A stretch of DNA of 64,000 nucleotides from an uncultured Eubacteriales bacterium (lineage in GTDB: Bacteria > Acidobacteriota > Aminicenantia > Aminicenantales > Aminicenantaceae). The stretch spans positions 7,456 to 71,455 of the forward strand of contig CAZYBE010000001.1 of NCBI GenBank assembly GCA_964645765.1, given 5' to 3'. Under the pieces are notes generated by a model that made no database searches, had not been told where the DNA came from, and saw only the letters and a program-made list of their open reading frames with translations. Position 1 is the stretch's first letter. The number at the start of each line of letters is the position of its first letter. The translations under genes and the position numbers were made by a program. Below are positions 22,133-60,463 of the stretch, one piece after another.

Positions 22133-22178
22133 CCTGGCCTTCGCCATCACAATCTTAATATGCTATAATTCAGCTGCG

Positions 22179-37864: not shown

Positions 37865-37960
37865 ATAACTCAAGCTAAGATTATATTTTGACCTGAAATC
37901 TTTGTCAACACATTGAATTTCAAAGGAACGATCTTTCTTTCCGTGGTGAAAAGCCTCGTT

Positions 37961-38113
37961 ATGGATCAGGCTGGGTGTCTCGAAGACACGCCGCTTTTGC
38001 CCCAGCGAGTCAAAAGCGGCTCGATTCCAGGCTTCGCTCTCCTCTCCCTTCGGTCGAGGAACCATGCCCGCTCAGCCCTCCATACGGTCTTCTCAACACC
38101 CAGCCTGATCCAT
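37961..38113. repeat. Family-1 repeat, copy D (about 153 bp), adjacent to the tmRNA 5' end
   Basis: Perfect 17-bp TIRs atggatcaggctgggtg / cacccagcctgatccat. Conserved hairpin and core. Confidence 0.85.
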
Positions 38114-40835: not shown

Positions 40836-40905
40836 ATTTGTCTCCTCAAAAGCGAAAAATTTTATCCTAAATAATAAACTATTTTGAAAGGCAAAAGTCA
40901 AATAC

Positions 40906-41056
40906 GGGGCTCAGGCTAAGCTGTGAGAAAACACGCAGCTTTTGTCCCGGCGAGACAAAAGCTGCTCGGTTTCAGGCTTCGCTCTCCTCTCCCTTCGGTC
41001 GAGGAACCATGCCCGCTCAGCCCTCAAACGGTTTTCTCACAGCTTAGCCTTCGCCC
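40906..41056. repeat. Family-1 repeat, copy E (about 151 bp) in a divergent promoter region
   Basis: TIRs ggctaagctgtgagaaaac / gttttctcacagcttagcc (19 bp perfect). The hairpin carries compensatory changes (cgcagcttttgtcccggcgagacaaaagctgc), and the conserved core is present. Confidence 0.85.
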
Positions 41057-45335: not shown

Positions 45336-46391
45336 ATGGAATACAAAATCTGTCTCATCGGCTGCGGCACAGTCGGGCAGGGTCTTGTGGAGATTCTTGT
45401 TGAAAAAAATGATGAATTGAGGAACAAGCTGGATTTTGAACCAAAAATCGTCGCCATCTGCGATAAGCTCAAGGGGTCTCTTCTCATTCCAGAAGGCATC
45501 AATATAAAAAAGCTTCTTCAGCTCCTCCAGCAAAAGAGGAGAATCGATGAATACCTGGGAGAAAAGCATAACGAGGCAGAGGGGGAAGACCCTCTGGAAA
45601 TTATTGAAAAATGCGAGGCTGACATCGTTGCCGAATTGACCTACACGGATATCAAGACCGCTGAGCCGGCCACGAGCTATATCAGGAAAGCCCTCAGAAC
45701 AGGAAAACATGTCGTCACCTCCAACAAGGGTCCGGCCGCTCTCTATTATGCCGAATTGAAAAAACTGGCGCGCAAGAACGATGTCTTCTTCAGGATTGAA
45801 GGGACGGTGATGAGCGGAACCCCAGTTTTCAGTCTCTTCGAGAACGGATTTGCCGGAAACGAGATTAGAGAAATACGAGGAATCCTGAACGGAACCACGA
45901 ATTTCATCCTCTCCAAAATGGAAGAGGAGAACATGGATTACGGAAAGGCTTTAAAACTCGCTCAAAACTTAGGCTTAGCTGAAGCTGACCCGACAGCAGA
46001 CGTTGAAGGCTACGATGCTCTGGCTAAAATCATCATCCTCTCCAACGTCCTTCTCGAAGCCAACATCAAGCCTGCTGATGCCAAAAGGCAAGGAATCACC
46101 TCTCTGACCAAGAAAAAAATCCAGGCGGCAAAAAAGCAGGGATACAGATACAAGCTTGTCGCTTCAGCCAGAAAAGAAAACGGCAAGGTTTCGGCCAGTG
46201 TCTCTCCTCAAAAGCTCCCTCTCTCCGACCCTCTGACTGGAATCATGGGGGCCAACAATGCTTTGTCCTTTGACCTCGATTTGCTGGGAAAAGTCATCAT
46301 CCAGGGCCCTGGAGCAGGAAAAACCGAGACGGGCTATTCCATCCTGGTCGATATGCTGGGCATTCACCGGCGTCTTTCAAAACAAAATTAA
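45336..46391 (+). CDS. hom: Homoserine dehydrogenase (short form, no ACT domain)
   Basis: 'IGCGTVGQG' NAD-binding motif; 'ILNGTTNFIL' and 'AEADPTADVEGYDALAKI' homoserine-DH signature. Confidence 0.8.
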   Translation: MEYKICLIGCGTVGQGLVEILVEKNDELRNKLDFEPKIVAICDKLKGSLLIPEGINIKKLLQLLQQKRRIDEYLGEKHNEAEGEDPLEIIEKCEADIVAELTYTDIKTAEPATSYIRKALRTGKHVVTSNKGPAALYYAELKKLARKNDVFFRIEGTVMSGTPVFSLFENGFAGNEIREIRGILNGTTNFILSKMEEENMDYGKALKLAQNLGLAEADPTADVEGYDALAKIIILSNVLLEANIKPADAKRQGITSLTKKKIQAAKKQGYRYKLVASARKENGKVSASVSPQKLPLSDPLTGIMGANNALSFDLDLLGKVIIQGPGAGKTETGYSILVDMLGIHRRLSKQN

Positions 46392-46457
46392 GAGCTCTGT
46401 AGAATAAAAATAAGCTTGTAAGCATAAATTGAAGAATCCAGAAGAAGGAGTGAGAGC

Positions 46458-47693
46458 ATGCACTTCAAGCTCTTAAGCAAAAAGGACCTCAAGGCTATGG
46501 ATGCTTTGGTCGATTCCTACGGCGGGGCAAAAGAGATTTCAAACGAGATTCAGTCCAGGAGGGATTATCCAACCAGGAAGAAAATCGCCGCTCAAAAAGG
46601 ATTCGCCGAGATGCTGGAGAAGGCAGAGCAATACGCCAAAAAATTTGCCAAGGTTGAGGACTTCGTCGAAAAAAACAGAATCCGCGTGACCAGGAAGGGA
46701 ATCTGCACCACCCAGGTTTCAGGATTCCAGGCCGCCCGCCCCACTTTTGACTGCGTCAGAAGAGTTGCGGAGAACGCCGATGTGCTTTTCCCGACAGAGA
46801 TGATTTCAGTTGTGAGTCTGACCGACCATTATGTCTACAGCGGCGACCTGCTGGCGACCCTGGCCATGGCTGAGAATATTCTTAGCGCAAGCAAGTTCTG
46901 CTCGACCAACCTCATCGGGACTCCGCTTCCAGAAGAGCGATTTGCAAGGCTGGAGAAGGCGACAGGCGAGAAATTCGAGCGCAGAGACCTGGGAAAGGGA
47001 TTGAGCCAGATCATCCTGAAGAACATGGGCACACCCTACGGAAACTTAGGAGGGGTCGAGGTCGGAAATAACAACCATCTCGTCTATCTCGACGGAGTGA
47101 CAAGGGCAGCCCTGGAAACAGGCGCGAATTTCTTCCTGAACCCGAGCTGGTCAACCATCGTCGCTGCCTGCTGCTACGCAAGGGAAATTCCCAATCTCTC
47201 TTTCAAGATATCGATGCTCCTCTCCACTCAAAACGCCATCCAGTTGCGGATGCTCTTGAATATCTTCAAGGAATATCTGCGCGATGACGGGACAACGCCG
47301 ATCTACGAGATTAACATCGGAAATGCCGCAACTGCCGAGACTTTTATCCAATGCTACGACGAGATAGAAGCTTCCGGCCTTCCCAAAATCCATCTTGCTG
47401 CCCATCTCAGAATCAATCCTGATTTGGGCCTGGCCGATTTCAACTGGACTGAGAATGCCTTCAAGGTGCTCGATGCTGGCAGAGATTTGACAATCAAATA
47501 CGAGAGTGACGGAGAATCCCGGCCTTATGACACCATGCAAGCCTATTTCCTCTCTGATGAAGAGAGGGATGAAAAGGCTGAGCTCGTTGGCGATGTCATC
47601 TACCATAAATGCCTCCGCTGCGACCAGGATGCCAAAGAAATCATGAGAAGAGGGCACGAGGCAAGGTTTGCCAGGGTTTCCTATAAGAAATGA
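46458..47693 (+). CDS. Hypothetical enzyme (411 aa, Cys-rich, unknown family) in the hom/PLP cluster
   Basis: Well-formed ORF with an AGGAG SD. No motif recognised with confidence; conserved-looking Cys pairs ('VAACCYARE', 'CLRCDQD'). Confidence 0.5.
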   Translation: MHFKLLSKKDLKAMDALVDSYGGAKEISNEIQSRRDYPTRKKIAAQKGFAEMLEKAEQYAKKFAKVEDFVEKNRIRVTRKGICTTQVSGFQAARPTFDCVRRVAENADVLFPTEMISVVSLTDHYVYSGDLLATLAMAENILSASKFCSTNLIGTPLPEERFARLEKATGEKFERRDLGKGLSQIILKNMGTPYGNLGGVEVGNNNHLVYLDGVTRAALETGANFFLNPSWSTIVAACCYAREIPNLSFKISMLLSTQNAIQLRMLLNIFKEYLRDDGTTPIYEINIGNAATAETFIQCYDEIEASGLPKIHLAAHLRINPDLGLADFNWTENAFKVLDAGRDLTIKYESDGESRPYDTMQAYFLSDEERDEKAELVGDVIYHKCLRCDQDAKEIMRRGHEARFARVSYKK

Positions 47694-47737
47694 ATCCTTC
47701 GAACTTGACGAGTCCAAAAAGAATCAGGAGATGAGGG

Positions 47738-48529
47738 ATGGATTTGGGCATCAAAAACAGAGTGGCTCTTGTGGCTGCAGCGAGCCGCGGACTGGGAAAG
47801 GCAATTGCCTTCCAGCTTTCGAGGGAAGGCGCAAAGGTCGTCATCTGCGCCAGGAATAAGGAAAGGCTTTTCAAGACGAGGGATGAAATCGCAGCGGGAA
47901 CAGGCGCGCAGGTAAAAGCTTTCGTTGCTGATGTCGCGGATAGAGCCAAGGTGAGGAGCCTGGTCCAGCAGACTGTGGAAGCCTTCGGCACTGTGGACAT
48001 TCTGGTCTCGAATGCCGGAGGACCCCCATCAGGCATGGCCGAGGACTTCGCTCTGGATGACTACCAGAAGGCTCTGGAACTCAACCTTTTGAGCACTGTC
48101 AGCCTCTGCTATGAAGTCATGCCCTTGATGAAGAAGCAGCGCTGGGGAAGAATCATCTTCATGACTTCAGTCTCTGCCAAGCAGCCGATCGAAAACCTCA
48201 TTCTCTCCAACACTTCGAGGGCAGGCGTCCTGGGCTTCTCCAAGTCCCTTTCAAGCCAGCTCGCGCCTTACGGGATAACTGCCAATTCTGTCTGTCCTGG
48301 ATATACCAGGACGGAAAGGGTCGAAGAGCTTGCCAGGTCTTTTGCGGAAAGCGGGAAAGGCACGGTCCATGACTTCTACAGGAATATCGAGAAATCCATT
48401 CCCATTGGTCGCTTGGCAAGCCCTGAAGAAGTTGCCAATGCCGTGGCTTTCCTTGCTTCTGAGAGAGCGAGCTATATCACTGGTGTGGCCCTTCAGGTCG
48501 ATGGCGGCTATATCAAATCTCTTTTTTGA
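47738..48529 (+). CDS. SDR family oxidoreductase (FabG-like)
   Basis: 'VALVAAASRGLGKAIA' TGxxxGxG variant, 'NAGG', and a catalytic Ser/Tyr/Lys 'YxxxK'-type region. Confidence 0.85.
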   Translation: MDLGIKNRVALVAAASRGLGKAIAFQLSREGAKVVICARNKERLFKTRDEIAAGTGAQVKAFVADVADRAKVRSLVQQTVEAFGTVDILVSNAGGPPSGMAEDFALDDYQKALELNLLSTVSLCYEVMPLMKKQRWGRIIFMTSVSAKQPIENLILSNTSRAGVLGFSKSLSSQLAPYGITANSVCPGYTRTERVEELARSFAESGKGTVHDFYRNIEKSIPIGRLASPEEVANAVAFLASERASYITGVALQVDGGYIKSLF

Positions 48530-48557
48530 TACACGGCAAGATTTGATGTAAATATAT

Positions 48558-48641
48558 GTCATCGCGAGGCGCGAAGCGCCGTGGCGATCTCATTAAATAA
48601 ATAATGAGATGGCCACGCTCCTTTCAGGAGCTCGCCATGAA
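48558..48641. repeat. Family-2 palindromic hairpin element (84 bp) between the SDR and cupin genes
   Basis: GTCATCGCGAGGcgcgaagcgcCGTGGCGATCTCAT-loop-ATGAGATGGCCACGctcctttcaggagCTCGCCATGA. The inner mini-hairpins show compensatory changes relative to copy 1. Confidence 0.8.
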
Positions 48642-48688
48642 AATATAACAAATTTTATTGCATATATAATAGCTAAAGGAAGGATCAG

Positions 48689-49051
48689 ATGACAGATGAT
48701 AAAAAAAATTGGGAAGGAATTCCTTATCCTGAGATGATACAGGGACTTCCTGGGGTCGACATTTCTCTCAAGGGAATAAGAGGCTGGCTCCTTCAGAGCG
48801 AAGATAAGCAGGTCGTGTTTTTTGACATCGAGCCGGTCGGCGAAATTCCACCCCATTCCCATTGCGCTCAATGGGGCATTGTTGTCGAAGGAAAGATGTC
48901 GCTGACCATAGGGGGCAAGACAAAGGTTTATCAAAAGGGAGACTGGTACTATATTCCTGAAGGAGTCGTGCACTCTGCCGCATTCCTCACCAGGGTCAAC
49001 GCCATCGATATCTTTGACCATCCGCAGCGTTATAAGGTAAAAAAAGCATAA
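48689..49051 (+). CDS. Cupin domain protein
   Basis: 120 aa with 'PPHSHCAQWGIVVEG...GDWYYIPEGVVHSA', the two cupin motifs. Confidence 0.8.
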   Translation: MTDDKKNWEGIPYPEMIQGLPGVDISLKGIRGWLLQSEDKQVVFFDIEPVGEIPPHSHCAQWGIVVEGKMSLTIGGKTKVYQKGDWYYIPEGVVHSAAFLTRVNAIDIFDHPQRYKVKKA

Positions 49052-49102
49052 GGCTTCGAAAAGCCGACAACAGGCTATGAGAGAATTAGCCTCCAAATAA
49101 AG

Positions 49103-50356
49103 ATGGAAAAAATCGACAACAAGCAAAGAGCTCTTTTCGAAGCGCTCTTCTCCGAAAACATGAAAAGCTTCGAAGGCTATGTCATCGGAAAAATGTTGGG
49201 GTATATAAACGACCCGAAGATCATTTCATTTGCCGGCGGCCTGCCCAGCAGCGAAGCCTTTCCTCTGGACATCATTCACAAGGCGGCTAAAAAGTCTCTT
49301 TGGAAGGATTGGGAGCTTGCGCTTCAATATTCCTCCATTCCCGGAGAGAAAGAGCTGATAGAGGCGGCCATTGATTATCTCAAGAGAGATGACATTTCCA
49401 TCGGGCCTGAGAATATCATGATCACCACCTCCGGACAGCACGGCCTGGACCTGGTCGGCAGGCTTTTCCTGGATTCGCAAGATTATATCGTCATCGACCT
49501 CCCCACGTTTGGGGGCGCGCTGGCCGCTTTTGAGCTCGAGGTTGCTCAATATATCGCCAGGGACATTCAAGAAGACGGCTCTGATGTCAGGGGAATGGAA
49601 CAAGGGATTGAAGAGTTTTTATCCAAAGGGAAAAAGCCAAAATTCATCTATGTCGTCCCGGATTTTCAGAACCCTTCAGGCATTACTATCTCTTTCGAGA
49701 AGAGGCTTTCACTTCTTTCTTTGAGCAAGAAATATGGAATCCCTCTGGTCGAGGACAGCCCTTACCGGGAGCTGAGATACAAAGGAAAAAGCCTTCCTTC
49801 CATCTATTCCCTGGATAAAAACCAGGGGAATGTCATCGGCGTCTATACTTTCTCCAAAATCCTCTGTCCTGGAATTCGGGTTGGCTTCAACATCGGCCCG
49901 CCAGAAATCATCAAGAAGTTCAATGCCATAAAAAGCGCCAACATTCTCAACACGCCAAAGCTCAACCAGGACATCTGCACCATCTTCCTGCGGGAATGCG
50001 ACCTGGATGCTCATTTCAAGAAAGCTATTGGCTATTACAGCCGAAAACTGGATTTTTTCCTAAAAGCCCTGGAAGAGAATTTTTCTAATGATATGGCCGC
50101 GAAATGGACAAAGCCTGAAGGGGGGCTTTTCCTCTGGGTCGAAGTTCCGGAGGAGATAAACACTCTTGAGCTCTACTACATGGCCCTTGAGGAGAAAGTT
50201 GCTTTTGTCCCTGGCGAAGTTTTTTATCCCAAAGGCTTTCGCAAATACAACACGATGAGGGTCAACTTCTCCTACCCGACAAAGGACGAGATTTTCGAGG
50301 GTGTGAAGAGGTTGAGCTCTGTAATCAAGAAATATAAAGCCAGGAAAAAAATTTAG
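49103..50356 (+). CDS. PLP-dependent aminotransferase (class I/II fold)
   Basis: 417 aa. 'YTFSKILCPGIRVGF' is a PLP-Lys region of the SxxK type. Confidence 0.75.
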   Translation: MEKIDNKQRALFEALFSENMKSFEGYVIGKMLGYINDPKIISFAGGLPSSEAFPLDIIHKAAKKSLWKDWELALQYSSIPGEKELIEAAIDYLKRDDISIGPENIMITTSGQHGLDLVGRLFLDSQDYIVIDLPTFGGALAAFELEVAQYIARDIQEDGSDVRGMEQGIEEFLSKGKKPKFIYVVPDFQNPSGITISFEKRLSLLSLSKKYGIPLVEDSPYRELRYKGKSLPSIYSLDKNQGNVIGVYTFSKILCPGIRVGFNIGPPEIIKKFNAIKSANILNTPKLNQDICTIFLRECDLDAHFKKAIGYYSRKLDFFLKALEENFSNDMAAKWTKPEGGLFLWVEVPEEINTLELYYMALEEKVAFVPGEVFYPKGFRKYNTMRVNFSYPTKDEIFEGVKRLSSVIKKYKARKKI

Positions 50357-50379
50357 GAATCATGAAAAAGGGAGGAATC

Positions 50380-51777
50380 ATGACTCAAAACCAACAATAC
50401 AGTCCAGGCGTCATGAAATATATCGAAGAGGCGAAGAAAGCTCTGGAGCAAAGAAGAGCACAGCTTGAACGGGTGAAAAAATTCAAGTTCGACACCCTTG
50501 CTGTTCATGGCCTCTACACAGTCGAGGAAGCCCTAAGCCATAACCAGGGCTCTGTCATCGAGCCCCTCTATCTTTCCGCATCTCAAGCCTACAGGGATTC
50601 TGACGAACTGGAGGCAGCTCTGGCTTATCTAATTCCAACCTGGTGCTACACGCGCATCACCAACCCGACAGTCCAATTTTTAGAATGGACTCTAGCTTTG
50701 CTCGAAGGCTATCAGACTGGATACGACACTTCCTGCATGGTGACAGCCTCTGGAATGTCAGCCATTATGTCGGCTGTCGATGCTTTCCTAATCAAGCAGA
50801 AAGATGGGCCTGAAAAAATCAACTTCGTCTCCTCGGTCCAGCTCTACGGCGGCGCCTTCCAGCATTTTTCCGTGCGCAAGATGCAGGAAAGAGGAATAGA
50901 AGTCCGCTGGGTCGGGCATCAGGAGGACGTGGAAGAATGGAAGGCCAAGATTGACGAAAACACCCGCTTTCTTTATTCTGAGGCGCCGAGCAACCCCCAG
51001 CAATCCTTTTGTGACATCAAAGCTCTTGCTGATTTAGCTCATTCCTGGCAAATTCCTTTTATCATCGATTCAACCTGTGCTACTCCGGCCTTGATGCGCC
51101 CCATCGGCTATGGAGCGGATATCGTCATTCATTCTTTAACCAAGTCAATAACTTCAGGAGGATTGGCCATCGGAGGAGCCTTAATCAGCCGCATGCCTAT
51201 CGTTAGCAAGATAAAGAACAACCACCCTCTCTTCAAGGAAAGCTTTTCCGAATATGTCAAGCTCCTCCCTCATCGGGATATGGGTCCGGCTGCATCTCCT
51301 TTAAACGCGCTTTTTGCCCTGAACGACCTGCGCACGCTCCGCTCCAAGATAGACCTGGTCAGCCAAAATTCTGAGAAGGTCGCGGATTTTCTAAGCCATC
51401 ATCCCCGCGTCTATCATGTCGATTATCTGGGCCTTGAAAGTTTCCATCTCCACAATCTGGCCAAAAGATACATGAAGCTTGTGGATTCAGACGACGGAAA
51501 AGGAAATGAAATAAACCGCTACGGCCACCTGCTCAGCTTCAGGGTTGACGGGCCTGCGCAGAATGCACGAAAAGTTTTTGACAAGTTCAAGCTTATTTTC
51601 AGGGCCACGGATTTGGGAAGAATCAAGAGCGTGGCCACCATTCCGGCAATCTCAACCCACCAGCAGCAGGGTGAGGAAGCGCGCAAGATGGCTGACATCC
51701 CGCCTCAGCTGATAAGGCTCTGCGTTGGGGCTGAAAATCCTGACGACGTCATCGCTGACCTGGACCAAGCCCTCTAG
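50380..51777 (+). CDS. Cys/Met-metabolism PLP-dependent enzyme (O-acetylhomoserine sulfhydrylase / cystathionine gamma-synthase-like, divergent)
   Basis: 'FDTLAVHGLYT' N-terminal motif and PLP-Lys 'SLTKSITSGGLAIGG'. Start placed after a GGGAGGA SD. The C-terminus is longer than typical. Confidence 0.7.
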   Translation: MTQNQQYSPGVMKYIEEAKKALEQRRAQLERVKKFKFDTLAVHGLYTVEEALSHNQGSVIEPLYLSASQAYRDSDELEAALAYLIPTWCYTRITNPTVQFLEWTLALLEGYQTGYDTSCMVTASGMSAIMSAVDAFLIKQKDGPEKINFVSSVQLYGGAFQHFSVRKMQERGIEVRWVGHQEDVEEWKAKIDENTRFLYSEAPSNPQQSFCDIKALADLAHSWQIPFIIDSTCATPALMRPIGYGADIVIHSLTKSITSGGLAIGGALISRMPIVSKIKNNHPLFKESFSEYVKLLPHRDMGPAASPLNALFALNDLRTLRSKIDLVSQNSEKVADFLSHHPRVYHVDYLGLESFHLHNLAKRYMKLVDSDDGKGNEINRYGHLLSFRVDGPAQNARKVFDKFKLIFRATDLGRIKSVATIPAISTHQQQGEEARKMADIPPQLIRLCVGAENPDDVIADLDQAL

Positions 51778-51785: not shown

Positions 51786-53309
51786 TCAAACAAAAGTTTC
51801 TTGATTTGTTGCCTTCATACGTTCTTCCTGCGTCATATTTGCCAGGTTTTCTATTTTCTTTACATCCAGATTCAGCCCTTGTCCTACGCGGCGGCCGTAA
51901 TCAGGGTCAGCCTTGTAGAAGATAGCGCATTGACGGTATTGGATTCGCTTCTGCGCGCCACCCAGATGGTCTACAATATTGCCGATGAGGTGCTCCCGGT
52001 CGGTATCGGTCATGACCTTCCGGAAGAGGTCGCCAGCCTGAATGAAGTCATCGTTGGGGTGAATGTACCGCTGGCGCGCAGCCTTCCCGGAGATCTTAAA
52101 GGGGGGTTCGGAGACCTCTGGCTTTGGTTCTGGGCCGCCGAAGCTATTGGGATAGTAATTAGGACTCCCTCCGAAGTTACTGTCAAAGCGCATGAAACCG
52201 TCACGCTGGAAGTTGTCGACCCTGCATGCCTTGGCCGCGTTCACCGGCAACAGGTGATAATTTGGCCCGAGGCGGTGGCGATGAGTATCATGGTAACTGA
52301 AGAGGCGGCCCTGAAGCATCTTATCTGGGGATGCCGCGATGCCGGGAACGAAATTGGCCGGAGAGAAGGCAGCCTGTTCAACTTCTGCGAAGTAGTTTTC
52401 AGGGTTTTTGTTCAAGGCTAACCTGCCGATGGTCATGGGCGGGAAGTCTGCATGCGGCCAGACCTTGGTGATATCGAAGGGGTCGAATCGGTAGTTTTCC
52501 GCCTGATCCGGCGTCATGATCTGCACCTCCAGCCTCCAGGATGGATAGTCTCCGCGCTTGATCGCCGCATAGAGGTCACGAGTGGCATGGTCGGGATCCT
52601 TGCCCTTCATGACTTCCGCATCCTGCCGGGTGAAGTTCTGAATGCCTTGTTCGGTCTTGAAGTGATACTGGACCCAGAAGTACTCACCCTTTTCGTTATA
52701 CCATTTAAAGGTGTGGCTGCTGTAGCCGTTCATATGGCGAAAGGTCCTGGGTGTGCCGCGGTCTGAGAAAAGAATCGTAACCTGATGGACGGACTCCGGT
52801 GTCAGCGAGAGAAAATCCCAAAACATGTCAGGATCTTTGAGGTTGGTCGCAGGGTGTTTTTTCTGGGTGTGAATGAAGTCAGGAAATTTCAGGGGATCGC
52901 GGATAAAAAAGACAGGGGTATTGTTACCCACGAGATCATAGTTGCCTTCTTCTGTGTAGAACTTCACTGCAAACCCGCGGGGATCACGCTCGGCATCTGC
53001 GGACCCCTTTTCCCCTCCAACGGTAGAGAAGCGGATAAAAACCTCGGTCCGTTTCCCCACTTGAGAGAGGAATTTGGCTCTGGTGTATTTCGTCATATCA
53101 GTCGTGACTTCAAAATACCCGTAGGCTCCCGCTCCCTTTGCATGAACCACCCTCTCGGGGATGCGTTCCCGTTCAAAATGGGAGAGCTTCTCCAGGAGAT
53201 GGACGTCCTGCATCAATACAGGTCCCGGGTTGCCGGCGGTGAGCGAATTCTGGTCGTCATCCACCGGCGCGCCAAAATTGTTCGTTAGCGTTTTGTTAGG
53301 GTTTTTCAT
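51786..53309 (-). CDS. katA: Monofunctional heme catalase
   Basis: '[23 protein letters not shown]' proximal His region and the conserved catalase core; 507 aa. Confidence 0.95.
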
Positions 53310-53382
53310 AGTAGCCTCCTTTTATTTTTTAGCGAACGCTTTATGGAGTTCCCAGCGGCCCGCTGCAGGGAACTTCAAAAAA

Positions 53383-53817
53383 CTAATGCTTCTTTTTCTG
53401 GCATTCTTTACAGTAGCCATAATATTCAAAACGCATCCCATCGACCTTAAAACCCGCCTTTTGTTCCACACGCTCTGAAGGCACAGGCAATCGGGCTTTG
53501 AAGTCCTCAATCTTTCCGCATCCTTTGCAGACAAGATTCAGATGATCGGATATATCCCCCTCGTAGCGGTTATCCCTATCGCAGAATTCCAGTTCCTTGA
53601 TCAATCCTTCCTTCTTTAAGATATCCAGCGTGTAATAGACCGTTGATAGGCTTATCCTCGGAATCCTTGTCCGTGCTATAGCAAAGATATCAAGGGCGCT
53701 CGGGTGGGTCTTCGCCTGGAAGAGGATGTCAAGAATCTGAAGCCGCTGTGGCGTGAGCTTGAACTTCTTTTTCTTCAGTCCCTGGATAAGCTGTGTTCTA
53801 ATCTCTTTCGGGCTCAT
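53383..53817 (-). CDS. perR: Fur-family peroxide regulator (PerR-like)
   Basis: 'LTPQRLQILDIL' HTH and 'CKGCGK' Zn site. Lies directly upstream of catalase. Confidence 0.8.
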   Translation of the reverse strand: MSPKEIRTQLIQGLKKKKFKLTPQRLQILDILFQAKTHPSALDIFAIARTRIPRISLSTVYYTLDILKKEGLIKELEFCDRDNRYEGDISDHLNLVCKGCGKIEDFKARLPVPSERVEQKAGFKVDGMRFEYYGYCKECQKKKH

Positions 53818-53870
53818 CGCATTTTATTCGGAATGATTCCGATTTATACTTTAACGACTGCATGATCATT

Positions 53871-53886
53871 TGTCAATAGATTGACA
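53871..53886 (-). promoter_or_regulatory. Fur/PerR-box-like palindrome TGTCAAT-AG-ATTGACA upstream of perR
   Basis: Perfect 7-2-7 inverted repeat about 55 bp upstream of the perR start. Confidence 0.5.
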
Positions 53887-54029
53887 TTTATCATCTTCTG
53901 GCGATATGGTCTTTTCTCGCTCAATAACAAGGATTCTAAGCTTGAGGGGAGAGAAATCAGGCAACCTAAAAAAGAAATTCTCTCTAATCTCTTCCGGGAG
54001 CAGCAGATTTTGTCAATTCATATAATCAA

Positions 54030-54360
54030 TTATCCTTCAGCAAGAATATTAAGAAGTTCTCCAGCACAATAGATTCGACTACGTTTGCGGCCAGACACTT
54101 CTTTGAGAATTCCCAGTTTTATAAGGCGCTCCACCGATGCTTTAGCAGTAGGCCAGGTTATCTTCAAGTAATCGCTTATTCCCGGCAAACTGACAAAGGG
54201 GTTTAAAAATAGCATATCTAATAACTGGAAAGCCGGCATGGAAACCGACTCTTTCTGAAGTTGTTGGCGATATTTCTTTTGCAGGTCTAAAATTTTATGG
54301 CCAGTTTCTTCTGCAACTTTTGACTGCTCTGCAGCTGCACGAATATTTTAATAATATGTA
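54030..54360 (-). pseudogene. 3' remnant of a second Fic-family gene (C-terminal wHTH region only)
   Basis: Translation '...LDMLFLNPFVSLPGISDYLKITWPTAKASVERLIKLGILKEVSGRKRSRIY' aligns with the C-terminus of the Fic protein at 42869..44020. No Fic motif is encoded upstream. Confidence 0.55.
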
Positions 54361-54568
54361 AAGTTATCTAAGCTATCTTTGATAAGATTTCTGCTTATCA
54401 AAATATTTAGCCATTAGTTTTGATAACACTCATTTGCAATTAATATACGCTTTAATCATGCCTATCATGTTGCAGCCCGTAAGCAGAGGAAAGACCTTTT
54501 TTAACTTTTTCAAGCTCATCTTCAGGTCCACGGATGGGCCGGACTTTGGGAAAAGTCTTTTGAGAACC

Positions 54569-55861
54569 TTATTCTTTCCTCTCCAGAAAATACCTCATAC
54601 CAACAAAGTCAAAGGTTAAAGCATAGGGCCTGAAGAATCCGTGTGAAATCAAGCCTCCGATACGAAACCTGAAGGCATTCTCTAAAGGAAAAGCGCCTGT
54701 ATACAATCCGCGAACGTTGTGCTCCTTGGCATCGCCAAGCGTCAATTCCTCGACCACGAATGGAATGACCTTCACTTTCCCTCCTCCGCCGACCCCTTCA
54801 GCGGCAAAGCTCTCTTGCAAGTTGATGCCTGCTTCCTTAAGGGTAGATTCAGCGCAGGTGAATCCACCGCCTGCTAACCCCGTGTCCACAAAAAAAAGGA
54901 GCGGCTGGCTCTTGTTAACTGTTCCCCAGGCCACCATGTAGTGGTCACCGGCCATCCAAAAGGGAATCACTATAGTTTCTTTTGCCCGCGCTTCTCGCTC
55001 CACTCGCTTCAGGTTTTCCTTCGTCTTGCGACGCAGAACGAGCTCACCCTGGGGATAATCCAGGGTAGGGATGAAGTGATAGAGCAAAACTGTTCCGATA
55101 ATTCCGTCGACTCGCTTCCCTCCAAAGACAGGCTGAGAGAAACGGCGGACATCCATGAGATGCACAGGAACGTTCTTGAGGGTGAAGTCGCCGAGTGTCA
55201 GGAAGTCCACCCGTCCATGCTGGAAGGCCGCCTGTTTTCCGCCTGCAAAAGTGCCTGTCACCGACCCAAACTGCACTATGTTCAACTCCTTGGCGAATTC
55301 GGTGTCAATGATGACCTCAGCACCGCCTGTATCGATGAAGAAGTTAACAGGCTCGCCTTCATTGACTCGCACCTGGATAACTGGCAATGGGTCGGTCATA
55401 ACGAACTTCAGATGACTGACCTCAGCTTTCCCTTCGATTTGGTAGGGCGTGATGCCTTTAAAGCTCTCAAGCTTCTTTGCTACCGCTTCTTGACCTGTAG
55501 CACGGAAGAACGGTGCGGCTTGCTTGAAATCGCCCTGGCGATAAAAAACTTCTGCCATCAAAGATTTAGGAGCTTGCTCCTCAGGCTTAAGTTCGATGGC
55601 TTTGGCTAACCACTTCTGGGCATTATCCAAGCGGTTAGCCAGCAGAGAAATGCTGCCCAAGCGAATAGCAGCCTGAAAATTCGCGGGCTCTGCAGCCAGA
55701 ACTTTAGTGTAGAGCTTCTCTGCTTCGACAAACTTTCCTGCCTTGAATAGGCTATCGGCAGTTTCAAGCTCGCTTTGCCCACTTTGAGCTTCATCGCTCA
55801 TCAGGGTTACACCTCCAAGCGAGAGTAGAATGGCAATACAAACAACCTTGAATGAAGTCAT
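54569..55861 (-). CDS. Secreted TPR + tandem retropepsin-like aspartic protease domain protein
   Basis: Signal peptide, TPR repeats, and two DTG-type motifs ('FFIDTGGAEV', 'FFVDTGLAGG'). Confidence 0.7.
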   Translation of the reverse strand: MTSFKVVCIAILLSLGGVTLMSDEAQSGQSELETADSLFKAGKFVEAEKLYTKVLAAEPANFQAAIRLGSISLLANRLDNAQKWLAKAIELKPEEQAPKSLMAEVFYRQGDFKQAAPFFRATGQEAVAKKLESFKGITPYQIEGKAEVSHLKFVMTDPLPVIQVRVNEGEPVNFFIDTGGAEVIIDTEFAKELNIVQFGSVTGTFAGGKQAAFQHGRVDFLTLGDFTLKNVPVHLMDVRRFSQPVFGGKRVDGIIGTVLLYHFIPTLDYPQGELVLRRKTKENLKRVEREARAKETIVIPFWMAGDHYMVAWGTVNKSQPLLFFVDTGLAGGGFTCAESTLKEAGINLQESFAAEGVGGGGKVKVIPFVVEELTLGDAKEHNVRGLYTGAFPLENAFRFRIGGLISHGFFRPYALTFDFVGMRYFLERKE

Positions 55862-56055
55862 AACCTGCTCCTTTCCAATATGTGTGAAAAATAACATTGA
55901 CAATTTCTCACATCGGATTCGATATTACCGAAGTCACCGTAAGCGATTTGAGCAAGGCGCATCAAATTCATCAACCCTGCATTGGGCAGATAGGAAGTTG
56001 CTTTTATGAATGGCAACATTTTATTCACCTTTAATTTTAGAAACCTCTCTGACTC

Positions 56056-57468
56056 TCAAAGATTAAAACAGACAACCTTTGGCTCTGTCATCTCCAGCAG
56101 CGCAAACTTAATCCCTTCCCGGCCGAGGCCGCTCCATTTTACGCCGCCGAATGGCATCATGTCGATGCGGTAATCGGTGGAATCGTTGACCATCACTCCG
56201 CCGACCTCGAGCTCCTTGATGGCCTTGAAGGCATTCTCCAAGGAGCGGGTGAAGATGGCTCCGTGAAGACCGTACTTGACGCTGTTGGAAAGCTTGATGG
56301 CCTCATCCAGAGAGGAAACCTTATAGAGATTCACCACTGGCCCGAAGACTTCCTCGCAGTTGAGCCTCGCAGCCTGAGGCATGTTCTTGAAGACAGTTGG
56401 CTCGAAAAGAGTCCCTTTTCTCTTTCCTCCGCTGAGAAGCTTGGCACCTTGCTCGATGGCTTCCTTGACCCATCTTTCCACCCGGGCTGCTTCTTCCTCT
56501 GTGATCATCGGCCCCATGTCTGTCTCCTCATCAAGCTGAAAGCCAACCTTCATCTTCTTGGTGCGCTGGACAAACATCCTCTCGAACTCACCGTAGACAG
56601 CTTCATGGATATAGATTCGCTGGACGCCGATGCAGTTCTGGCCCACAGCCCAGAAAGCACCTGAGACAGAAAGCTCGACAGCCTTGGGAAGGTCAGCATC
56701 GTCCATGACAATCACCGGCGAGTTTGAGCCGAGCTCCATGCCTATTTTCTTCAAGCCTGCTTTTTTGACAATGTCCAGGCCTGCCTCGGTTCCTCCAGTA
56801 AAAGAAATCATCCTCACTCTTGAGTCTGTGACCAATGCATCGGCGATTCTTGAAGCACGGCCGGTGACGATGTTCAAGATCTTCCAGGGAAGCCCGGCCT
56901 CGACCAGTGCCTCCCCCAGTTTTAATGCGGAAAGAGGAGTGACGGTCGCGGGCTTGAGGACAATAGAATTTCCGGCGGCAATGGCTGGCCCGACTTTATG
57001 GGCAACGAGGTTCAAGGGGTCGTTGAACGGGGTTATGGCGACGATAACGCCGATGGGAAAGAGGCAGTAGTAGCCAACCCTATTTTCCGACCCGATGCGG
57101 CTGTCAAAGGGAATGGTCTCGCCGACAATCCTTCGCGCTTCTTCAGCGGAGATGGTGATGGTGTCAACGCAGCGGCTGACCTCTTTGCGTGCCTCGCGGA
57201 TGGTCTTGCTTCCTTCAGTGGCTATCGTCCTGGCAAACTCCTCCTGGCGGCTTCTTACGATTTCAGCGGTCCTGTAAAGGACCGAGATTCGCCGGTGAAC
57301 AGGAAGGTCGCGGTTAATTCTAAACCCTTCCTCTGCTGCTCCGATGGCTGCTTCCACATCCTTCTTATCCCCGGCAGGGACAGTGTCAATCAATTCGTTG
57401 TTGTAAGGGTTGCGGACTTCAATCTTCTCGACCTTGTCAACCCATTTTTCTCCGATGAGCATTCTCAT
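56056..57468 (-). CDS. NAD(P)-dependent aldehyde dehydrogenase
   Basis: 470 aa with 'FTGGTEAG' and a catalytic Cys 'GQNCIG'. Confidence 0.9.
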   Translation of the reverse strand: MRMLIGEKWVDKVEKIEVRNPYNNELIDTVPAGDKKDVEAAIGAAEEGFRINRDLPVHRRISVLYRTAEIVRSRQEEFARTIATEGSKTIREARKEVSRCVDTITISAEEARRIVGETIPFDSRIGSENRVGYYCLFPIGVIVAITPFNDPLNLVAHKVGPAIAAGNSIVLKPATVTPLSALKLGEALVEAGLPWKILNIVTGRASRIADALVTDSRVRMISFTGGTEAGLDIVKKAGLKKIGMELGSNSPVIVMDDADLPKAVELSVSGAFWAVGQNCIGVQRIYIHEAVYGEFERMFVQRTKKMKVGFQLDEETDMGPMITEEEAARVERWVKEAIEQGAKLLSGGKRKGTLFEPTVFKNMPQAARLNCEEVFGPVVNLYKVSSLDEAIKLSNSVKYGLHGAIFTRSLENAFKAIKELEVGGVMVNDSTDYRIDMMPFGGVKWSGLGREGIKFALLEMTEPKVVCFNL

Positions 57469-57712: not shown

Positions 57713-57805
57713 TATATCTCGAATATGGTAACACATCATGTCTTTCTTTCAATGAAAATAGCGGGCGGTTGAATTTTGGGTATCGTTCATTTAGAATGTT
57801 GGCAA

Positions 57806-59068
57806 ATGGAAAAAATCAGGATTAGCGGGAATAACAACCTCCAGCTAAAAGGGAAAGTCAAAATCAGCGGAGCCAAGAACGCTGTTTTACCCGCCATCGT
57901 TGCCTGCCTCTTGACCAAAGAAAAGGTCCGCCTGAAGAATGTCCCTCTGGTTAAAGACGTCTTCACCATATTAACCCTGATGAAAGAGCTCGGCGCAAGC
58001 TACCAGTTGAAAAAAAATTCTTTATCCATCCAGGTCAAAGACTTCAAATCGGCCGAAGCTTCTTATGAGCTGGTCCGGGCGATGAGGGCATCCATCCTCG
58101 TCCTGGGTCCGCTTTTGGCTCGCTTCGGAAAAGCTATTGTCGCTTTGCCCGGCGGCTGCGCCATAGGCTCTCGTCCCATAGACCTCCACATCCACGGGCT
58201 TGAAAAGCTGGGAGCCTCGATAAACCTCGAGCACGGCTACATCAAGGCTGAAGCAAAAAGTCTCAATGGAACAGTGATAGAATTCGAGAAGAAAACAGTC
58301 GGAGGGACTGAAAACTTGGTCATGGCGGCCGCATTGGCCAAAGGTGAGACAATTTTAAAAAAATGCGCTCTGGAACCAGAAGTGACAAACCTCTGTGAGC
58401 TGTTGATCAAAATGGGAGCCAAGATTGACGGCGCTGGAGAAGAGACCATCCGGATCAAGGGAGTCGAAGAGCTTGGGGGCGCCTCTCATGACATCATCCC
58501 TGACCGGATTGAGGCAGGAACTTTCCTCGTTGCCGGGGCTTTAACCAAAGGGAATATCATCCTGACTCACACTCGGCCTGACCACCTCGACGTTATCATT
58601 GAAAAATTGAGGTATTCAGGCGCAACGATAGACAAGCTCAACAATCATTCTCTCCGGGTTATCGGAAGCGAAGAGATCAAGCCTCAAGATATCACCACTT
58701 CCCCCTACCCAGGATTCCCGACGGATATGCAGGCGCAGTTTATTGTCTTGATGACTCAGGCTTCAGGGACATCAATCATCACCGAGACCATTTTCGACAG
58801 GCGCTTCTCCCACATCAACGAACTCCTCCGCCTTGGCGCCAATATCGAAGTCTCTGGAGATAAGGCCGTTGTCAAAGGAAAAACTCCGCTCTCCGGAGCA
58901 GAGATCATAGCCACTGATTTGAGGGCTTCGGCCTCTCTTGTCCTGGCGGGTCTGATTGCCAAGGGAGAAACAATCGTCAACGATGTCGAACACCTGGACC
59001 GTGGCTATGAGAGACTTGAAGAGAAGCTCAAGTCTCTCGGAGGCCTCATTGAAAGAATAAGAGAATAG
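57806..59068 (+). CDS. murA: UDP-N-acetylglucosamine 1-carboxyvinyltransferase
   Basis: 'KISGAKNAVLP' N-terminus and the catalytic 'PGGCAIGSRPID' Cys loop. Confidence 0.95.
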   Translation: MEKIRISGNNNLQLKGKVKISGAKNAVLPAIVACLLTKEKVRLKNVPLVKDVFTILTLMKELGASYQLKKNSLSIQVKDFKSAEASYELVRAMRASILVLGPLLARFGKAIVALPGGCAIGSRPIDLHIHGLEKLGASINLEHGYIKAEAKSLNGTVIEFEKKTVGGTENLVMAAALAKGETILKKCALEPEVTNLCELLIKMGAKIDGAGEETIRIKGVEELGGASHDIIPDRIEAGTFLVAGALTKGNIILTHTRPDHLDVIIEKLRYSGATIDKLNNHSLRVIGSEEIKPQDITTSPYPGFPTDMQAQFIVLMTQASGTSIITETIFDRRFSHINELLRLGANIEVSGDKAVVKGKTPLSGAEIIATDLRASASLVLAGLIAKGETIVNDVEHLDRGYERLEEKLKSLGGLIERIRE

Positions 59069-59123
59069 GAGAAGAGGCCTTTAGCTTCTCAAGATTCTCT
59101 TTCCATAATTTGAAATCTAAAAA

Positions 59124-59597
59124 ATGCCATACTTGATCGACGGCAATAACTTGATGGGGCATATCTTCCCCCACAATTTCAGGGAAAAGCAAAGCAAATA
59201 CAACCTGATCCATGACCTATTGATTTTTCAGCAACGAAAAAGGACAAGGGTTTTTGTTGTTTTTGACGGAGCTGCTGAGCCGGACCTGGAGAAATTTCAG
59301 AAAAAAGAGTTTTCAATCATCAATCCTCCTTTGGGCCAGAAAGCTGATGGAATCATTAAAGAAATCATTTCCCGCGAGACAGACCTAAGAAGATTCTTCG
59401 TCGTCAGCTCGGACCGGGAGATTAAAAGATTTGCCAGGTCAAAAGGAGCCAAAGCTTTGAGCTCGAAAGAGTTTAACCGTGAGCTCAAAACGGCCTTGAA
59501 GCAAAACATGAGGTTCCAGGAATTCCAGAAAGAAGTCTCAGAGCTTTCTCCCCTCGAGATAGACCATTGGCTCATGATTTTTAAAAACAGAAAATGA
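59124..59597 (+). CDS. NYN-domain (YacP-like) predicted RNA-binding/ribonuclease protein
   Basis: 'MPYLIDGNNLMG...VFVVFDG...FVVSSDREI' matches the YacP/Rae1-like NYN pattern. Confidence 0.7.
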   Translation: MPYLIDGNNLMGHIFPHNFREKQSKYNLIHDLLIFQQRKRTRVFVVFDGAAEPDLEKFQKKEFSIINPPLGQKADGIIKEIISRETDLRRFFVVSSDREIKRFARSKGAKALSSKEFNRELKTALKQNMRFQEFQKEVSELSPLEIDHWLMIFKNRK

Positions 59598-60463
59598 ACA
59601 ATATCTCTATAATCGGCGCCGGGAGGCTGGGGACATCGCTGGCCTCTGCACTTGGAAAGAAAGGATACAGCATAAAAGCACTCTCTTGCAAAAAAAGTTC
59701 TTCGGCAAAAGAGAGCCAAAAAATCGTCGGAAAAGGCAAGGCTCTGACCGATAATGTCCGAGCGGCAAGGCTCGGAGATTTAGTCTTTCTGTGTCTGCCG
59801 GATGAAGAGATTGAGAAAGTCGCCGCGCAACTGGCAAAGTCTAATATCGATTGGTCGAAAAAGCTTGTCTTCCACTGTTCAGGTCTCCTTCCTTCAAAAA
59901 TCCTCAAGCCCTTAAAGGACAAGGGAGCCTTGATAGCTTCCTTCCATCCTGTCCAGTCCTTTGCCCAAAAAAAAACCGAGCCGGCAGACTTCAAGAGCGT
60001 CTATTTTGGACTCGAGGGATGCAGCAAGGCTCTGACTTCGGCTCGAAAGATTGTACGGAAGCTCGGCGGTCATCCTTTCATTCTCAAGGCGAAAGACAAA
60101 GCCATTTACCATTCAGCCTGCAGCATAGCCTCCAACTTTCTGGTTGTGCTTTTAGATATGGCCGTCTCCTTGCTCAAGCAAACAGGCTTGAATGAAGAAA
60201 AAGCCTTCCAAGTCCTTCTGCCCTTAGTTCAAGGGACTTTACACAATGTAAAAAAATTTAACATGGGCACGTCTCTGACCGGCCCTGTCATCAGAGGAGA
60301 CCAGAAAACTGTAAACAGCCATCTTAAAGCTCTCCGTGCTTTTCCTTCCTATCCTGAAACATACCGGAAGCTGGCTGAGCAGGCCTTGGAAATAGCAAGA
60401 AGAGAAAAAAGATTGTCTTCGCAAAAAATCAGGGCAATGAAAGCCCTGCTCCAAGAAAGATAA
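59594..60463 (+). CDS. Rossmann-fold NAD(P)-binding protein (DUF2520/ProC-like)
   Basis: 'ISIIGAGRLGTSLASAL' dinucleotide-binding motif; ATGA overlap with the upstream gene. Confidence 0.6.
   Translation: MNNISIIGAGRLGTSLASALGKKGYSIKALSCKKSSSAKESQKIVGKGKALTDNVRAARLGDLVFLCLPDEEIEKVAAQLAKSNIDWSKKLVFHCSGLLPSKILKPLKDKGALIASFHPVQSFAQKKTEPADFKSVYFGLEGCSKALTSARKIVRKLGGHPFILKAKDKAIYHSACSIASNFLVVLLDMAVSLLKQTGLNEEKAFQVLLPLVQGTLHNVKKFNMGTSLTGPVIRGDQKTVNSHLKALRAFPSYPETYRKLAEQALEIARREKRLSSQKIRAMKALLQER

Follow-up and report, generated by a model that had tools for sequence, protein, structure and literature searches.

A protein family without known relatives beside homoserine enzymes in Aminicenantes and other uncultured phyla: a tentative link to homoserine supply

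The routes to threonine, methionine and isoleucine part at homoserine, which every textbook pathway that we know of derives from aspartate. Could some bacteria obtain it in another way? The question is raised by a 64,000-nucleotide stretch of DNA from an uncultured bacterium of the Aminicenantales (positions 7,456 to 71,455 of contig CAZYBE010000001.1, assembly GCA_964645765.1; here called the window), in which six open reading frames (ORFs) on one strand, at 45336-51777, encode a homoserine dehydrogenase (hom), an uncharacterised 411-residue protein (referred to here as X), a short-chain dehydrogenase/reductase (SDR), a cupin, an aminotransferase and a pyridoxal-phosphate (PLP) enzyme. A previous reading based on the DNA letters and a list of ORFs (the sequence-only reading) described the six as co-directional genes of a possible homocysteine or modified amino-acid pathway. 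All six genes and their coordinates are confirmed and the family assignments hold; the interpretation as a whole is partly supported. Comparison with other genomes adds an aldehyde dehydrogenase (ALDH) partner, a cassette that crosses phyla, and links to thrC, homK and PanB. Together, the X family and its cassette form a well-supported lead to an unrecognised reaction at the homoserine node, be it in threonine, methionine or aspartate metabolism.

The six-gene cluster and protein X

The cluster is compact, with intergenic gaps of 5-66 bp, except for the 159 bp separating the SDR and cupin genes. It opens with hom (45336-46391, plus strand), whose 351-residue product is indeed a short homoserine dehydrogenase, as had been read from the letters: it matches PF00742 (1.1e-57) and PF03447 (1.8e-9), scores above the cut-off of the equivalog model NF004912 (416 bits against 373) and lacks an ACT domain. 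Further on from its Rossmann motif GCGTVG it reads AICD, and the Asp of this cofactor loop suggests a preference for NAD(H). A second dehydrogenase lies beyond the six-gene span, on the minus strand at 56056-57468. This ALDH (PF00171, 4.8e-156) has intact motifs for the general base (GMELGS) and the catalytic Cys (GQNCIG), and its matches in the PDB are ALDH21 (1e-117), the lactaldehyde dehydrogenase MJ1411, the non-phosphorylating glyceraldehyde-3-phosphate dehydrogenase GAPN and succinate-semialdehyde dehydrogenase, so that it is predicted to be of the hydrolytic, non-acylating type. A reductive, ProA-like phosphorylating enzyme, which would make hom and ALDH a biosynthetic pair, was considered and rejected, as the hydrolytic Glu and Cys are both intact and the nearest relatives are non-phosphorylating. 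In relatives of the window the ALDH gene adjoins the PLP gene, starting 7-80 bp 3' of it in loci such as L006, L008 and L030. The window has between the two (51786-55903) a catalase of 507 residues, a putative Fur-like ORF of 144 residues and a TPR/aspartyl-protease protein, an oxidative-stress insertion in a presumed anaerobe.

What kind of protein is X (46458-47693, plus strand)? No Pfam or NCBIfam family matches it at E ≤ 0.01. Searched against PDB sequences, the single sequence finds nothing at E ≤ 10 and the profile gives one spurious match only (E 0.36). A permissive Pfam scan (E ≤ 10) of 17 diverse members has RuBisCO_large as its best match (E 0.069, in 2 members). This match is noise, located in the wrong part of the barrel, and there are no mtn genes nearby; a reading of X as a RuBisCO-like protein of methionine salvage is therefore not supported. 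An anaerobic variant of that pathway, with X as enolase and the SDR and cupin standing in for the oxygen-dependent dioxygenase, was also discarded, as salvage genes are never linked to X. X resembles neither DUF39 nor the sulfur-transfer families (rhodanese, ThiS/MoaD-type and others), is without similarity to the DapA/NAL and DeoC/ADH-synthase families, and has no sequence homology to aldolase families in the Pfam scans. The family is nonetheless widespread: 56 matches, nearly all of them fragments, were found among 1.84 billion cluster representatives at 50% identity (three full-length, at 60%, 41% and 35% identity), clustering at 90% yields 1221 matches, and X is encoded in 337 GTDB species representatives. 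Judged by its sequence, X is the founding member of an enzyme family without a description so far. The sequence-only reading was right that the family is unrecognised, and neither these searches nor the structural comparison below place it in an unrelated housekeeping family; the label Cys-rich does not hold, as only 8 of the 411 residues (1.9%) are cysteines.

The AlphaFold2 model of X (pLDDT 84.4, pTM 0.86) has an N-terminal helical bundle (approximately residues 1-75) followed by alternating beta and alpha elements, and is best described as a predicted TIM-barrel-like beta/alpha domain without a close structural relative. The weak Foldseek matches include class I aldolases, transaldolase, KDO8P synthases, type I dehydroquinase, MmuM and BHMT. 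An alignment of 17 members (34-87% identity) shows invariant polar residues in both the first half (R40, Q86, E114, D130, E139, C148, N189, T192, N196, E201, N206 and Y210) and the second half of the protein (C238, K250, S252, Q258, E284, N286, C299, K347, Y348 and E349). Model confidence is low in a Gly/Asn-rich loop (189-206), probably a mobile loop of the active site. The invariant K250 sits in a predicted barrel strand (249-252). Three cysteines are invariant (C148, C238 and C299), but an Fe-S cluster on them is unlikely because C238 and C299 fall inside predicted helices and not at strand ends. X also evolves slowly: of seven cluster genes compared in 16 complete loci, it ranks first in conservation in 11, and its mean identity to the window protein (84.5%) exceeds that of citrate synthase (81.4%).

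The SDR (47738-48529, plus strand) is of the PRK08339/TM1169 type. It matches PF13561 and PF00106 and falls below every NCBIfam cut-off. Calling it an SDR reductase was correct as to the superfamily, but the canonical YxxxK dyad is replaced by Ser-x3-Arg (LSNTSR), a motif kept in orthologues, and by this criterion the protein would not be of the canonical catalytic type. Its nearest PDB chains read S-N-x-x-R (1o5i, which is TM1169; 2z1n, which is APE0912; and 5vps) or S-G-x-x-N (6jh7). The PDB listing gives no function for these four, and the chemistry of the S-N-x-x-R subfamily appears uncharacterised. The single-domain cupin (48689-49051, plus strand, 120 residues; Cupin_2, PF07883, 1.4e-11) carries the putative metal ligands His56-His58-Gln61...His95 (3His-1Gln), invariant in 12 orthologues from several lineages, and is predicted from them to be of the metal-binding type. 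Its PDB matches are 4e2g (7e-10), BacB (6.6e-7) and KdgF (6e-3), the kinship to the latter two being weak. The class I/II aminotransferase (AT; 49103-50356, plus strand; PF00155, 4.7e-31) is closest in the PDB to 1x0m/3aov (1e-83), to the Thermococcus multiple-substrate aminotransferase MsAT (1wst, 2e-80) and to Thermus LysN (2egy, 2e-68), matches that support its assignment by sequence to the LysN/ARO8/PH0207 type of class I. Against NCBIfam it gives weak matches to LL-diaminopimelate aminotransferase and AvtA, far under the DapL cut-offs. Enzymes of the LysN family accept branched-chain substrates. Cupin and aminotransferase are thus as first annotated.

The last gene of the cluster (50362-51777, plus strand) encodes a gamma-family Cys/Met-metabolism PLP enzyme, matching PF01053 over residues 47-471 (8.6e-83). 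Its description as divergent is borne out: it scores under all 25 NCBIfam cut-offs listed, the best being TIGR01326 (287 bits against 495), and since no NCBIfam model is above its cut-off, the enzyme receives no specific assignment as O-acetyl- or O-succinylhomoserine sulfhydrylase, methionine gamma-lyase or cystathionine gamma-synthase. The C-terminal extension attributed to it does not exist. The enzyme is most similar to O-acetylhomoserine sulfhydrylases, and its alignment with the MetY of Campylobacter (O-acetylhomoserine sulfhydrylase 4oc9, 1e-55) covers the full core and reaches the last residue; what distinguishes the two is a short insertion and some 32-38 additional N-terminal residues forming a helical extension, about 32 of which are conserved in orthologues. 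Based on the orthologue alignment, the true start is probably M7, at position 50380. The lysine motif SLTKSITSGG, singled out previously as atypical, is real and is kept in 11 orthologues (as HSLTKSITSGG), but it is not unprecedented: its Lys aligns with that of HSLSKYVSGQG in 4oc9. A further difference from MetY systems is the absence of an acyltransferase. As the sequence-only reading had noted, there is neither MetX nor MetA among the approximately 46 window ORFs scanned, and the substrate of the PLP enzyme would be a homoserine ester, possibly O-phosphohomoserine.

Neighbourhoods of X across genomes

Which genes accompany X elsewhere? Neighbours were counted within 8 kb in 95 X loci, 39 of which have full flanks. 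The most constant partner is the cupin, found in 79 of the 95, and X-cupin pairs also occur alone. The SDR and the aminotransferase are each present in 62, hom in 57 (in three different arrangements), an aldehyde dehydrogenase in 34 and the PLP enzyme in 31 (18 of the 39 with full flanks); the latter is missing from all non-Aminicenantes arrangements examined. The 80 loci from Aminicenantes genomes share the order X-[SDR]-cupin-[aminotransferase]-[PLP], and hom lies upstream on the same strand, divergently, or downstream of the cupin. The co-conservation that had been suggested as a check on the cluster is therefore found: X has this set of neighbours in dozens of genomes, and for this reason the association is well beyond chance. 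That the cluster is organised around homoserine is also confirmed, with hom or thrC/homK near X in 31 of the 39 fully flanked loci.

The source names of homologues assign the window to Candidatus Aminicenantes. X is not restricted to Aminicenantes. At 56-62% identity it occurs in metagenome-assembled genomes (MAGs) labelled Bacteroidales, Delongbacteria, Phycisphaerae and Zixibacteria, among others. In the FCB-type MAGs, which are Bacteroidales-like and bear a type IX secretion system (T9SS), the cassette proteins compare with those of the window at 56-62% (X), 55-59% (aminotransferase) and 57% (SDR) identity. X, aminotransferase and SDR are thus about equally conserved between the two groups, which establishes X, cupin, SDR and aminotransferase, as far as sequence comparison goes, as one orthologous cassette across phyla.

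The independent evidence consists of about eight distinct arrangements across phyla, and homoserine enzymes stand beside X in at least five independent ones: hom upstream on the same strand, divergent hom-ALDH, X-cupin-hom-ALDH, X-AT-thrC-homK, and thrC-homK divergent from X-AT. An order X-AT-SDR-cupin-thrC-ligase-homK also occurs (in locus L083 with asd and ask 6 kb upstream), and cupin-X alone is a further arrangement. X-cupin-hom-ALDH is a tight operon without an aminotransferase. There, and in the divergent hom-ALDH loci, the ALDH orthologue lies directly 3' of hom and overlaps its stop codon by 4 bp; many of the loci combining hom with the hydrolytic ALDH have no sulfur enzyme. In X-AT-thrC-homK loci, no hom was found within the 7-10 kb covered to each side of X. 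The thrC and homK products encoded next to X exceed the thresholds of their NCBIfam models (TIGR00260, 255 against 167; TIGR02535, 539 against 446). Could X simply replace a known enzyme of the pathway? As ask and asd (L083), hom (Aminicenantes) and HomK in place of ThrB (FCB MAGs) each co-occur with X somewhere, X is no simple replacement of aspartokinase, aspartate-semialdehyde dehydrogenase, homoserine dehydrogenase or homoserine kinase.

In one lineage a 517-residue AMP-binding enzyme resembling acyl-ACP/fatty-acid ligases consistently separates thrC from homK (L082/L083, 15273-16826; L091, 6232-7785). Locus L091, whose X-AT-cupin-thrC-ligase-homK cluster has no SDR gene and is otherwise intact, carries an IS200-type Y1 transposase (2315-2758) that splits X from the aminotransferase gene. 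The MAG is labelled Methanosarcinaceae, and a neighbouring protein with a T9SS sorting domain suggests that the contig is mis-binned.

A smaller set of loci ties X to panB. A Phycisphaerae MAG has the order AsnC regulator, class IV aminotransferase (Aminotran_4, IlvE-type), X (62% identical to that of the window) and PanB. Contig Ga0499479_0365 (L084/L095), from a T9SS-bearing organism, encodes two divergent X paralogues at 5623-6840 and 16808-18004, with 34-41% identity to X of the window. There is a 4-bp overlap with panB in one, indicative of translational coupling, and the second stands alone amid genes for secreted proteins. X-panB pairs are found in L081 and L084, and the PanB association amounts to 3 of the 95 counted loci, one of which is a second fetch of the L084 contig. 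Among the other neighbours, the 5-enolpyruvylshikimate-3-phosphate (EPSP) synthase gene aroA is directly 3' of the aminotransferase gene in L094 and within 8 kb of X in 27 loci, a prephenate dehydratase gene is immediately upstream of X in L090, and citrate synthase is syntenic with the X cluster. No transporter or substrate-specific regulator was seen to travel with the cassette in the 95-locus count, no ferredoxin or NIL-domain partner is among the Pfam matches listed for genes near X, and no ilvB, ilvN, ilvC or leu genes are near X in the arrangement types examined. The lack of a travelling transporter or regulator and the fact that X is the slowest-evolving gene of its neighbourhood argue for a role of the cassette in core metabolism.

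Homoserine supply and its alternatives

What reaction would bring X together with these genes? The recurring neighbours of X all act on homoserine, and on this basis the reading that we prefer, with a probability of roughly 0.3, is that the cassette feeds the L-homoserine pool via 4-hydroxy-2-oxobutanoate and transamination. The new family with its predicted fold class, the orthology of the cassette between phyla and its constant adjacency to homoserine enzymes are shown; which 2-oxo acid is involved, in which direction the flux runs and what X catalyses are what we infer here from gene context. X would be the catalytic core of a cassette comprising itself, the metal-dependent cupin, the atypical SDR and the LysN/ARO8-type aminotransferase. 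It would form 4-hydroxy-2-oxobutanoate, most simply by an aldol-type addition of a one-carbon (C1) unit, either formaldehyde or methylene-tetrahydrofolate, to pyruvate. The cupin and the SDR, where present, may ketonise, isomerise or redox-adjust a 2-oxo-acid intermediate, and the aminotransferase would convert 4-hydroxy-2-oxobutanoate into homoserine. From here, HomK and threonine synthase would lead to threonine, the sulfhydrylase-like PLP enzyme would act in the direction of homocysteine and methionine, and hom with the hydrolytic ALDH would carry homoserine via aspartate semialdehyde to aspartate. A flux from homoserine to aspartate needs, in turn, a source of homoserine other than aspartate.

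Seen in this way, X-AT-thrC-homK reads as four consecutive steps of a pathway. PanB performs C1-addition chemistry on 2-oxoisovalerate, and the overlap with panB together with the order aminotransferase-X-panB links the X family to 4-hydroxy-2-oxo acids or to 2-oxo-acid hydroxymethylation. Addition of C1 to pyruvate is favoured among the possible chemistries because the minimal operon X-AT-thrC-homK must start at a central metabolite, because the family is tied to PanB, and because X has an invariant Lys on a predicted barrel strand; the weak fold matches to class I aldolases, a transaldolase, KDO8P synthases and type I dehydroquinase also speak for the model. The specific aldol mechanism is, taken by itself, rather unlikely. 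The same can be said of the boldest form of the proposal, in which X and the aminotransferase would constitute a natural aspartate-independent route to homoserine, with hom and ALDH of Aminicenantes and relatives running backwards to provide aspartate semialdehyde and aspartate, and the aspartate-family pathway inverted in several uncultured anaerobic phyla.

Several known systems resemble parts of this scheme. The literature describes an engineered 'homoserine cycle' in which a 4-hydroxy-2-oxobutanoate aldolase (promiscuous pyruvate aldolases; PanB-type hydroxymethyl transfer) is combined with an aminotransferase. Its chemistry is the one proposed here, with a C1 unit and a 2-oxo acid giving homoserine after transamination, followed by kinase and threonine synthase; the order X-AT-thrC-homK fits this logic, as does the physical link of the X family to panB. 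The differences are that only synthetic versions were found in the literature, that X shows no detectable relation in sequence to PanB or to the aldolases in Pfam, and that the cupin and SDR have no counterpart there. The other end of the scheme has a biochemical precedent: a hom and ALDH operon of Pseudomonas canavaninivorans, shown biochemically and reconstituted, takes homoserine through aspartate semialdehyde to aspartate (PMC9533460). There too, hom forms an operon with a hydrolytic ALDH, close to a Cys/Met-family PLP enzyme, but the locus is inducible and catabolic, with an ABC transporter, a guanidine exporter and an aspartate ammonia-lyase, and lacks X, cupin and SDR, whereas the X locus has no linked transporter and its genes are core and highly conserved. 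As for the threonine branch, HomK forms O-phosphohomoserine, as validated by thrB complementation (bioRxiv 10.1101/2024.10.14.618325). The resemblance of the X loci to the threonine operons of Bacteroidota resides in HomK (TIGR02535/ThrB2) and ThrC, both above cut-offs beside X. In Bacteroides operons, thrA, an aspartokinase-homoserine dehydrogenase fusion, precedes these genes; in the X-containing MAGs, X and the aminotransferase are found at that position instead. Finally, in bacilysin biosynthesis the cupin BacB, the SDR BacG/YwfH and the aminotransferase BacF act sequentially on an unsaturated 2-oxo acid. The cassette likewise joins a cupin, an SDR and a class I aminotransferase, with PDB matches to BacB (see above) and YwfH (3e-35), and by analogy bacilysin may serve as a precedent for auxiliary roles of the cupin and SDR. 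The similarity is at the family level only, the bacilysin genes form a secondary-metabolite cluster acting on a prephenate-derived ring, and the cassette SDR lacks the catalytic Tyr and Lys.

A number of points weigh against a supply of homoserine by X. Its substrate and reaction are proposed from gene context and weak fold matches. Foldseek of the model against the PDB gives generic TIM-barrel matches only (best E 1.5e-3, query-normalised TM ≤ 0.34), and an alignment of X with its neighbour PanB by hhalign has a probability of 0.2% (E 0.31), on which homology between the two was dismissed. We know of no natural aldolase route to homoserine, and the literature search turned up engineered pathways only; nor did it yield anything relevant on homoserine or threonine in Aminicenantes, on aspartate-independent homoserine synthesis, or on homoserine in connection with a cupin and a TIM barrel. 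The aldol mechanism gives no necessary role to the SDR or to the cupin, the most constant partner of X. With ask and asd upstream of the cluster, at least the organism of L083 makes aspartate semialdehyde conventionally, and hom could work in its usual reductive direction. The counts, lastly, are non-independent and overstate independence, as a single class contributes the majority of the 95 loci.

How else can the neighbourhoods be explained? X could be an aldolase joining aspartate semialdehyde to a keto partner, as do DapA and archaeal ADH synthase, and its product, processed by the aminotransferase, cupin and SDR, would enter, by a non-orthologous step, diaminopimelate and lysine synthesis or an analogue of the route to shikimate through 2-amino-3,7-dideoxy-D-threo-hept-6-ulosonate (ADH). 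K250 on its predicted strand would suit such an enzyme, as would the fold matches to KDO8P synthases, class I aldolases and type I dehydroquinase. Aspartate semialdehyde is made or used by the adjoining hom, and L083 has ask and asd in the vicinity of X. The shikimate connection finds an echo in the prephenate dehydratase gene of L090 and in aroA, both in L094 and in the 27 loci, but the aroA adjacency is confined to Aminicenantes and may be plain synteny; the diaminopimelate connection is echoed by the LL-diaminopimelate aminotransferase models, whose DapL cut-offs the aminotransferase misses by far. X resembles neither DapA/NAL nor DeoC/ADH-synthase families, and the adjacency to thrC-homK, the coupling of hom to ALDH and the PanB link would all be left unexplained. 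This makes an aspartate-semialdehyde aldolase clearly less probable than homoserine supply.

Of comparable, low probability is a catabolic or salvage role, in which X and the cupin would free homoserine from an exogenous or recycled compound (a lactone, an O- or S-substituted homoserine, or a sulfonium), after which hom and ALDH would take homoserine to aspartate and the aminotransferase and citrate synthase would connect it to central metabolism. Such a route through homoserine, from a PLP gamma-lyase to a homoserine dehydrogenase and an ALDH, has been demonstrated experimentally (PMC9533460). The X-cupin-hom-ALDH operon, which has no aminotransferase, has the composition expected for it; the hydrolytic ALDH, the cofactor-loop Asp of hom suggestive of NAD+, the syntenic citrate synthase and the presence of MmuM, a homocysteine methyltransferase, and BHMT among the better of the weak fold matches are also in line with it. 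What speaks against catabolism is that no transporter or substrate-specific regulator is linked, that X is a core gene (337 species) evolving more slowly than citrate synthase, which would be unusual for a peripheral catabolic gene, and that the cassette of FCB MAGs is placed within biosynthetic thrC-homK operons.

The PanB and IlvE-type contexts are best accounted for by a third alternative, which places X in branched-chain or pantothenate metabolism as a non-orthologous analogue of the 2,3-dihydroxy-acid dehydratase IlvD or as an analogue of ketopantoate reductase, using or producing acids of the 2-oxoisovalerate type. The aminotransferase would then be a branched-chain transaminase, an option to which its weak AvtA and LysN-type matches lend some weight, and the homoserine and threonine genes would be adjacent because threonine feeds isoleucine. 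The cassette can be mapped onto IlvC-like (cupin and SDR), IlvD-like (X) and IlvE-like (aminotransferase) steps, and both the translational coupling of an X paralogue to panB, with the X-panB pairs of L081 and L084, and the Phycisphaerae order from AsnC regulator to PanB would follow naturally. The PanB association is limited to the 3 counted loci, the ilvB, ilvN, ilvC and leu genes are absent near X in the types examined where homoserine enzymes recur, the hom-ALDH pair would have no explanation, and Aminicenantes already have a syntenic DUF2520 protein that may be a ketopantoate reductase of the PanG type. We regard this alternative as more doubtful than the two before it. An oxaloacetate/aspartate hub, with X producing oxaloacetate, the cupin as tautomerase, the SDR reducing to malate and the aminotransferase forming aspartate, agrees with the observed contexts and ranks below homoserine supply, as the hom-ALDH pair would need a separate, unexplained source of homoserine. 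A cassette making a non-proteinogenic amino acid fits poorly with the status of X, which belongs to the core in hundreds of species and evolves more slowly than its neighbours.

The weakest alternative is the one that the sequence-only reading had put forward, namely that X is an activation or sulfur-incorporation step towards homocysteine which, together with the PLP enzyme, replaces MetX or MetA: hom, X and the PLP enzyme are co-directional in one operon-like cluster with MetX and MetA absent among the window ORFs scanned, and the PLP enzyme has its conserved N-terminal extension and scores under all equivalog cut-offs, but two thirds of the X loci and all non-Aminicenantes arrangements examined lack this enzyme, the cassette is joined to thrC and homK in other phyla and, in many loci, to hom and ALDH without a sulfur enzyme, X is primarily associated with the cupin, the aminotransferase and ThrC/HomK, X is unlike any sulfur-transfer family, and the PLP lysine motif also occurs in a solved O-acetylhomoserine sulfhydrylase, all of which makes it improbable. 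The accompanying comparison with the DUF39/COG1900 route is not supported either. Both would be unconventional enzymes at the aspartate-semialdehyde/homoserine node in anaerobes, but X has neither a DUF39 match nor a listed NIL or ferredoxin neighbour, and is linked to threonine and aspartate enzymes instead of sulfur metabolism.

Homoserine supply from precursors other than aspartate would, if true, be a new amino-acid biosynthetic route and provide a part for the engineering of C1 assimilation. If one of the alternatives is right, X would still be a non-orthologous replacement of a core enzyme. In either case, X belongs to a slow-evolving family without known relatives that adjoins homoserine enzymes in over 300 species of uncultured anaerobes, so that for these lineages, which are abundant in sediments and the subsurface, automated reconstruction of metabolism misses at least one central-node reaction.

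Repeats and other genes of the window

The 159-bp gap between the SDR and cupin genes contains a palindromic repeat (48554-48640, not assigned to a strand) able to fold into a hairpin with a minimum free energy of -53.7 kcal/mol (z = -5.8). A second copy, 86% identical over 44 nt, is located at 29576-29619. The hairpin noted after the SDR gene is thus real, but it does not split the cluster functionally. It is missing from all 90 related loci compared, the closest relative (L001) having a 38-bp spacer at this place, and an Rfam scan gave nothing at 48530-48688 and, elsewhere in the scanned region, a chance snoRNA match (E 0.65). A conserved riboswitch or attenuator was rejected on these grounds; the hairpin is a strain-specific insertion of a small repeat and not a conserved regulatory RNA. 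At least two more intergenic repeat families, of 74-159 nt and with 2-4 copies each (65-88% identity, some inverted), have copies at 18631-18789, 21909-21990, 37948-38106, 40893-41051, 17482-17555 and 22061-22134. The genome therefore holds several small dispersed repeat families.

Upstream of the cluster, the segment 42869-45136 separates citrate synthase from hom. It encodes a Fic/DOC protein with Fic_N, Fic and HTH domains, and an ORF of 370 residues. The latter has weak matches to HsdR-N and an N6-methylase only and is probably a truncated restriction-modification gene. The G+C content of this segment is 0.42-0.43, against approximately 0.47-0.50. It looks like an inserted defence or mobile island, a reading based on the short distance between citrate synthase and hom in most related loci (less than about 1.5 kb). 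On the other side, beyond the ALDH gene, EPSP synthase, a NYN/YacP nuclease and an oxidoreductase with Rossmann and DUF2520 domains (57776-60463) are syntenic with the cluster in Aminicenantes; the DUF2520 protein (PF10728) may be of the PanG ketopantoate-reductase type. Further genes of the window encode a B12-binding radical SAM protein (1301-2656), a bacterial eRF1-like protein (baeRF family 10; 2921-4135), an RND efflux system with AcrB, HlyD and OEP components (4185-9768) and a GTP-dependent phosphoenolpyruvate carboxykinase (24952-26730).

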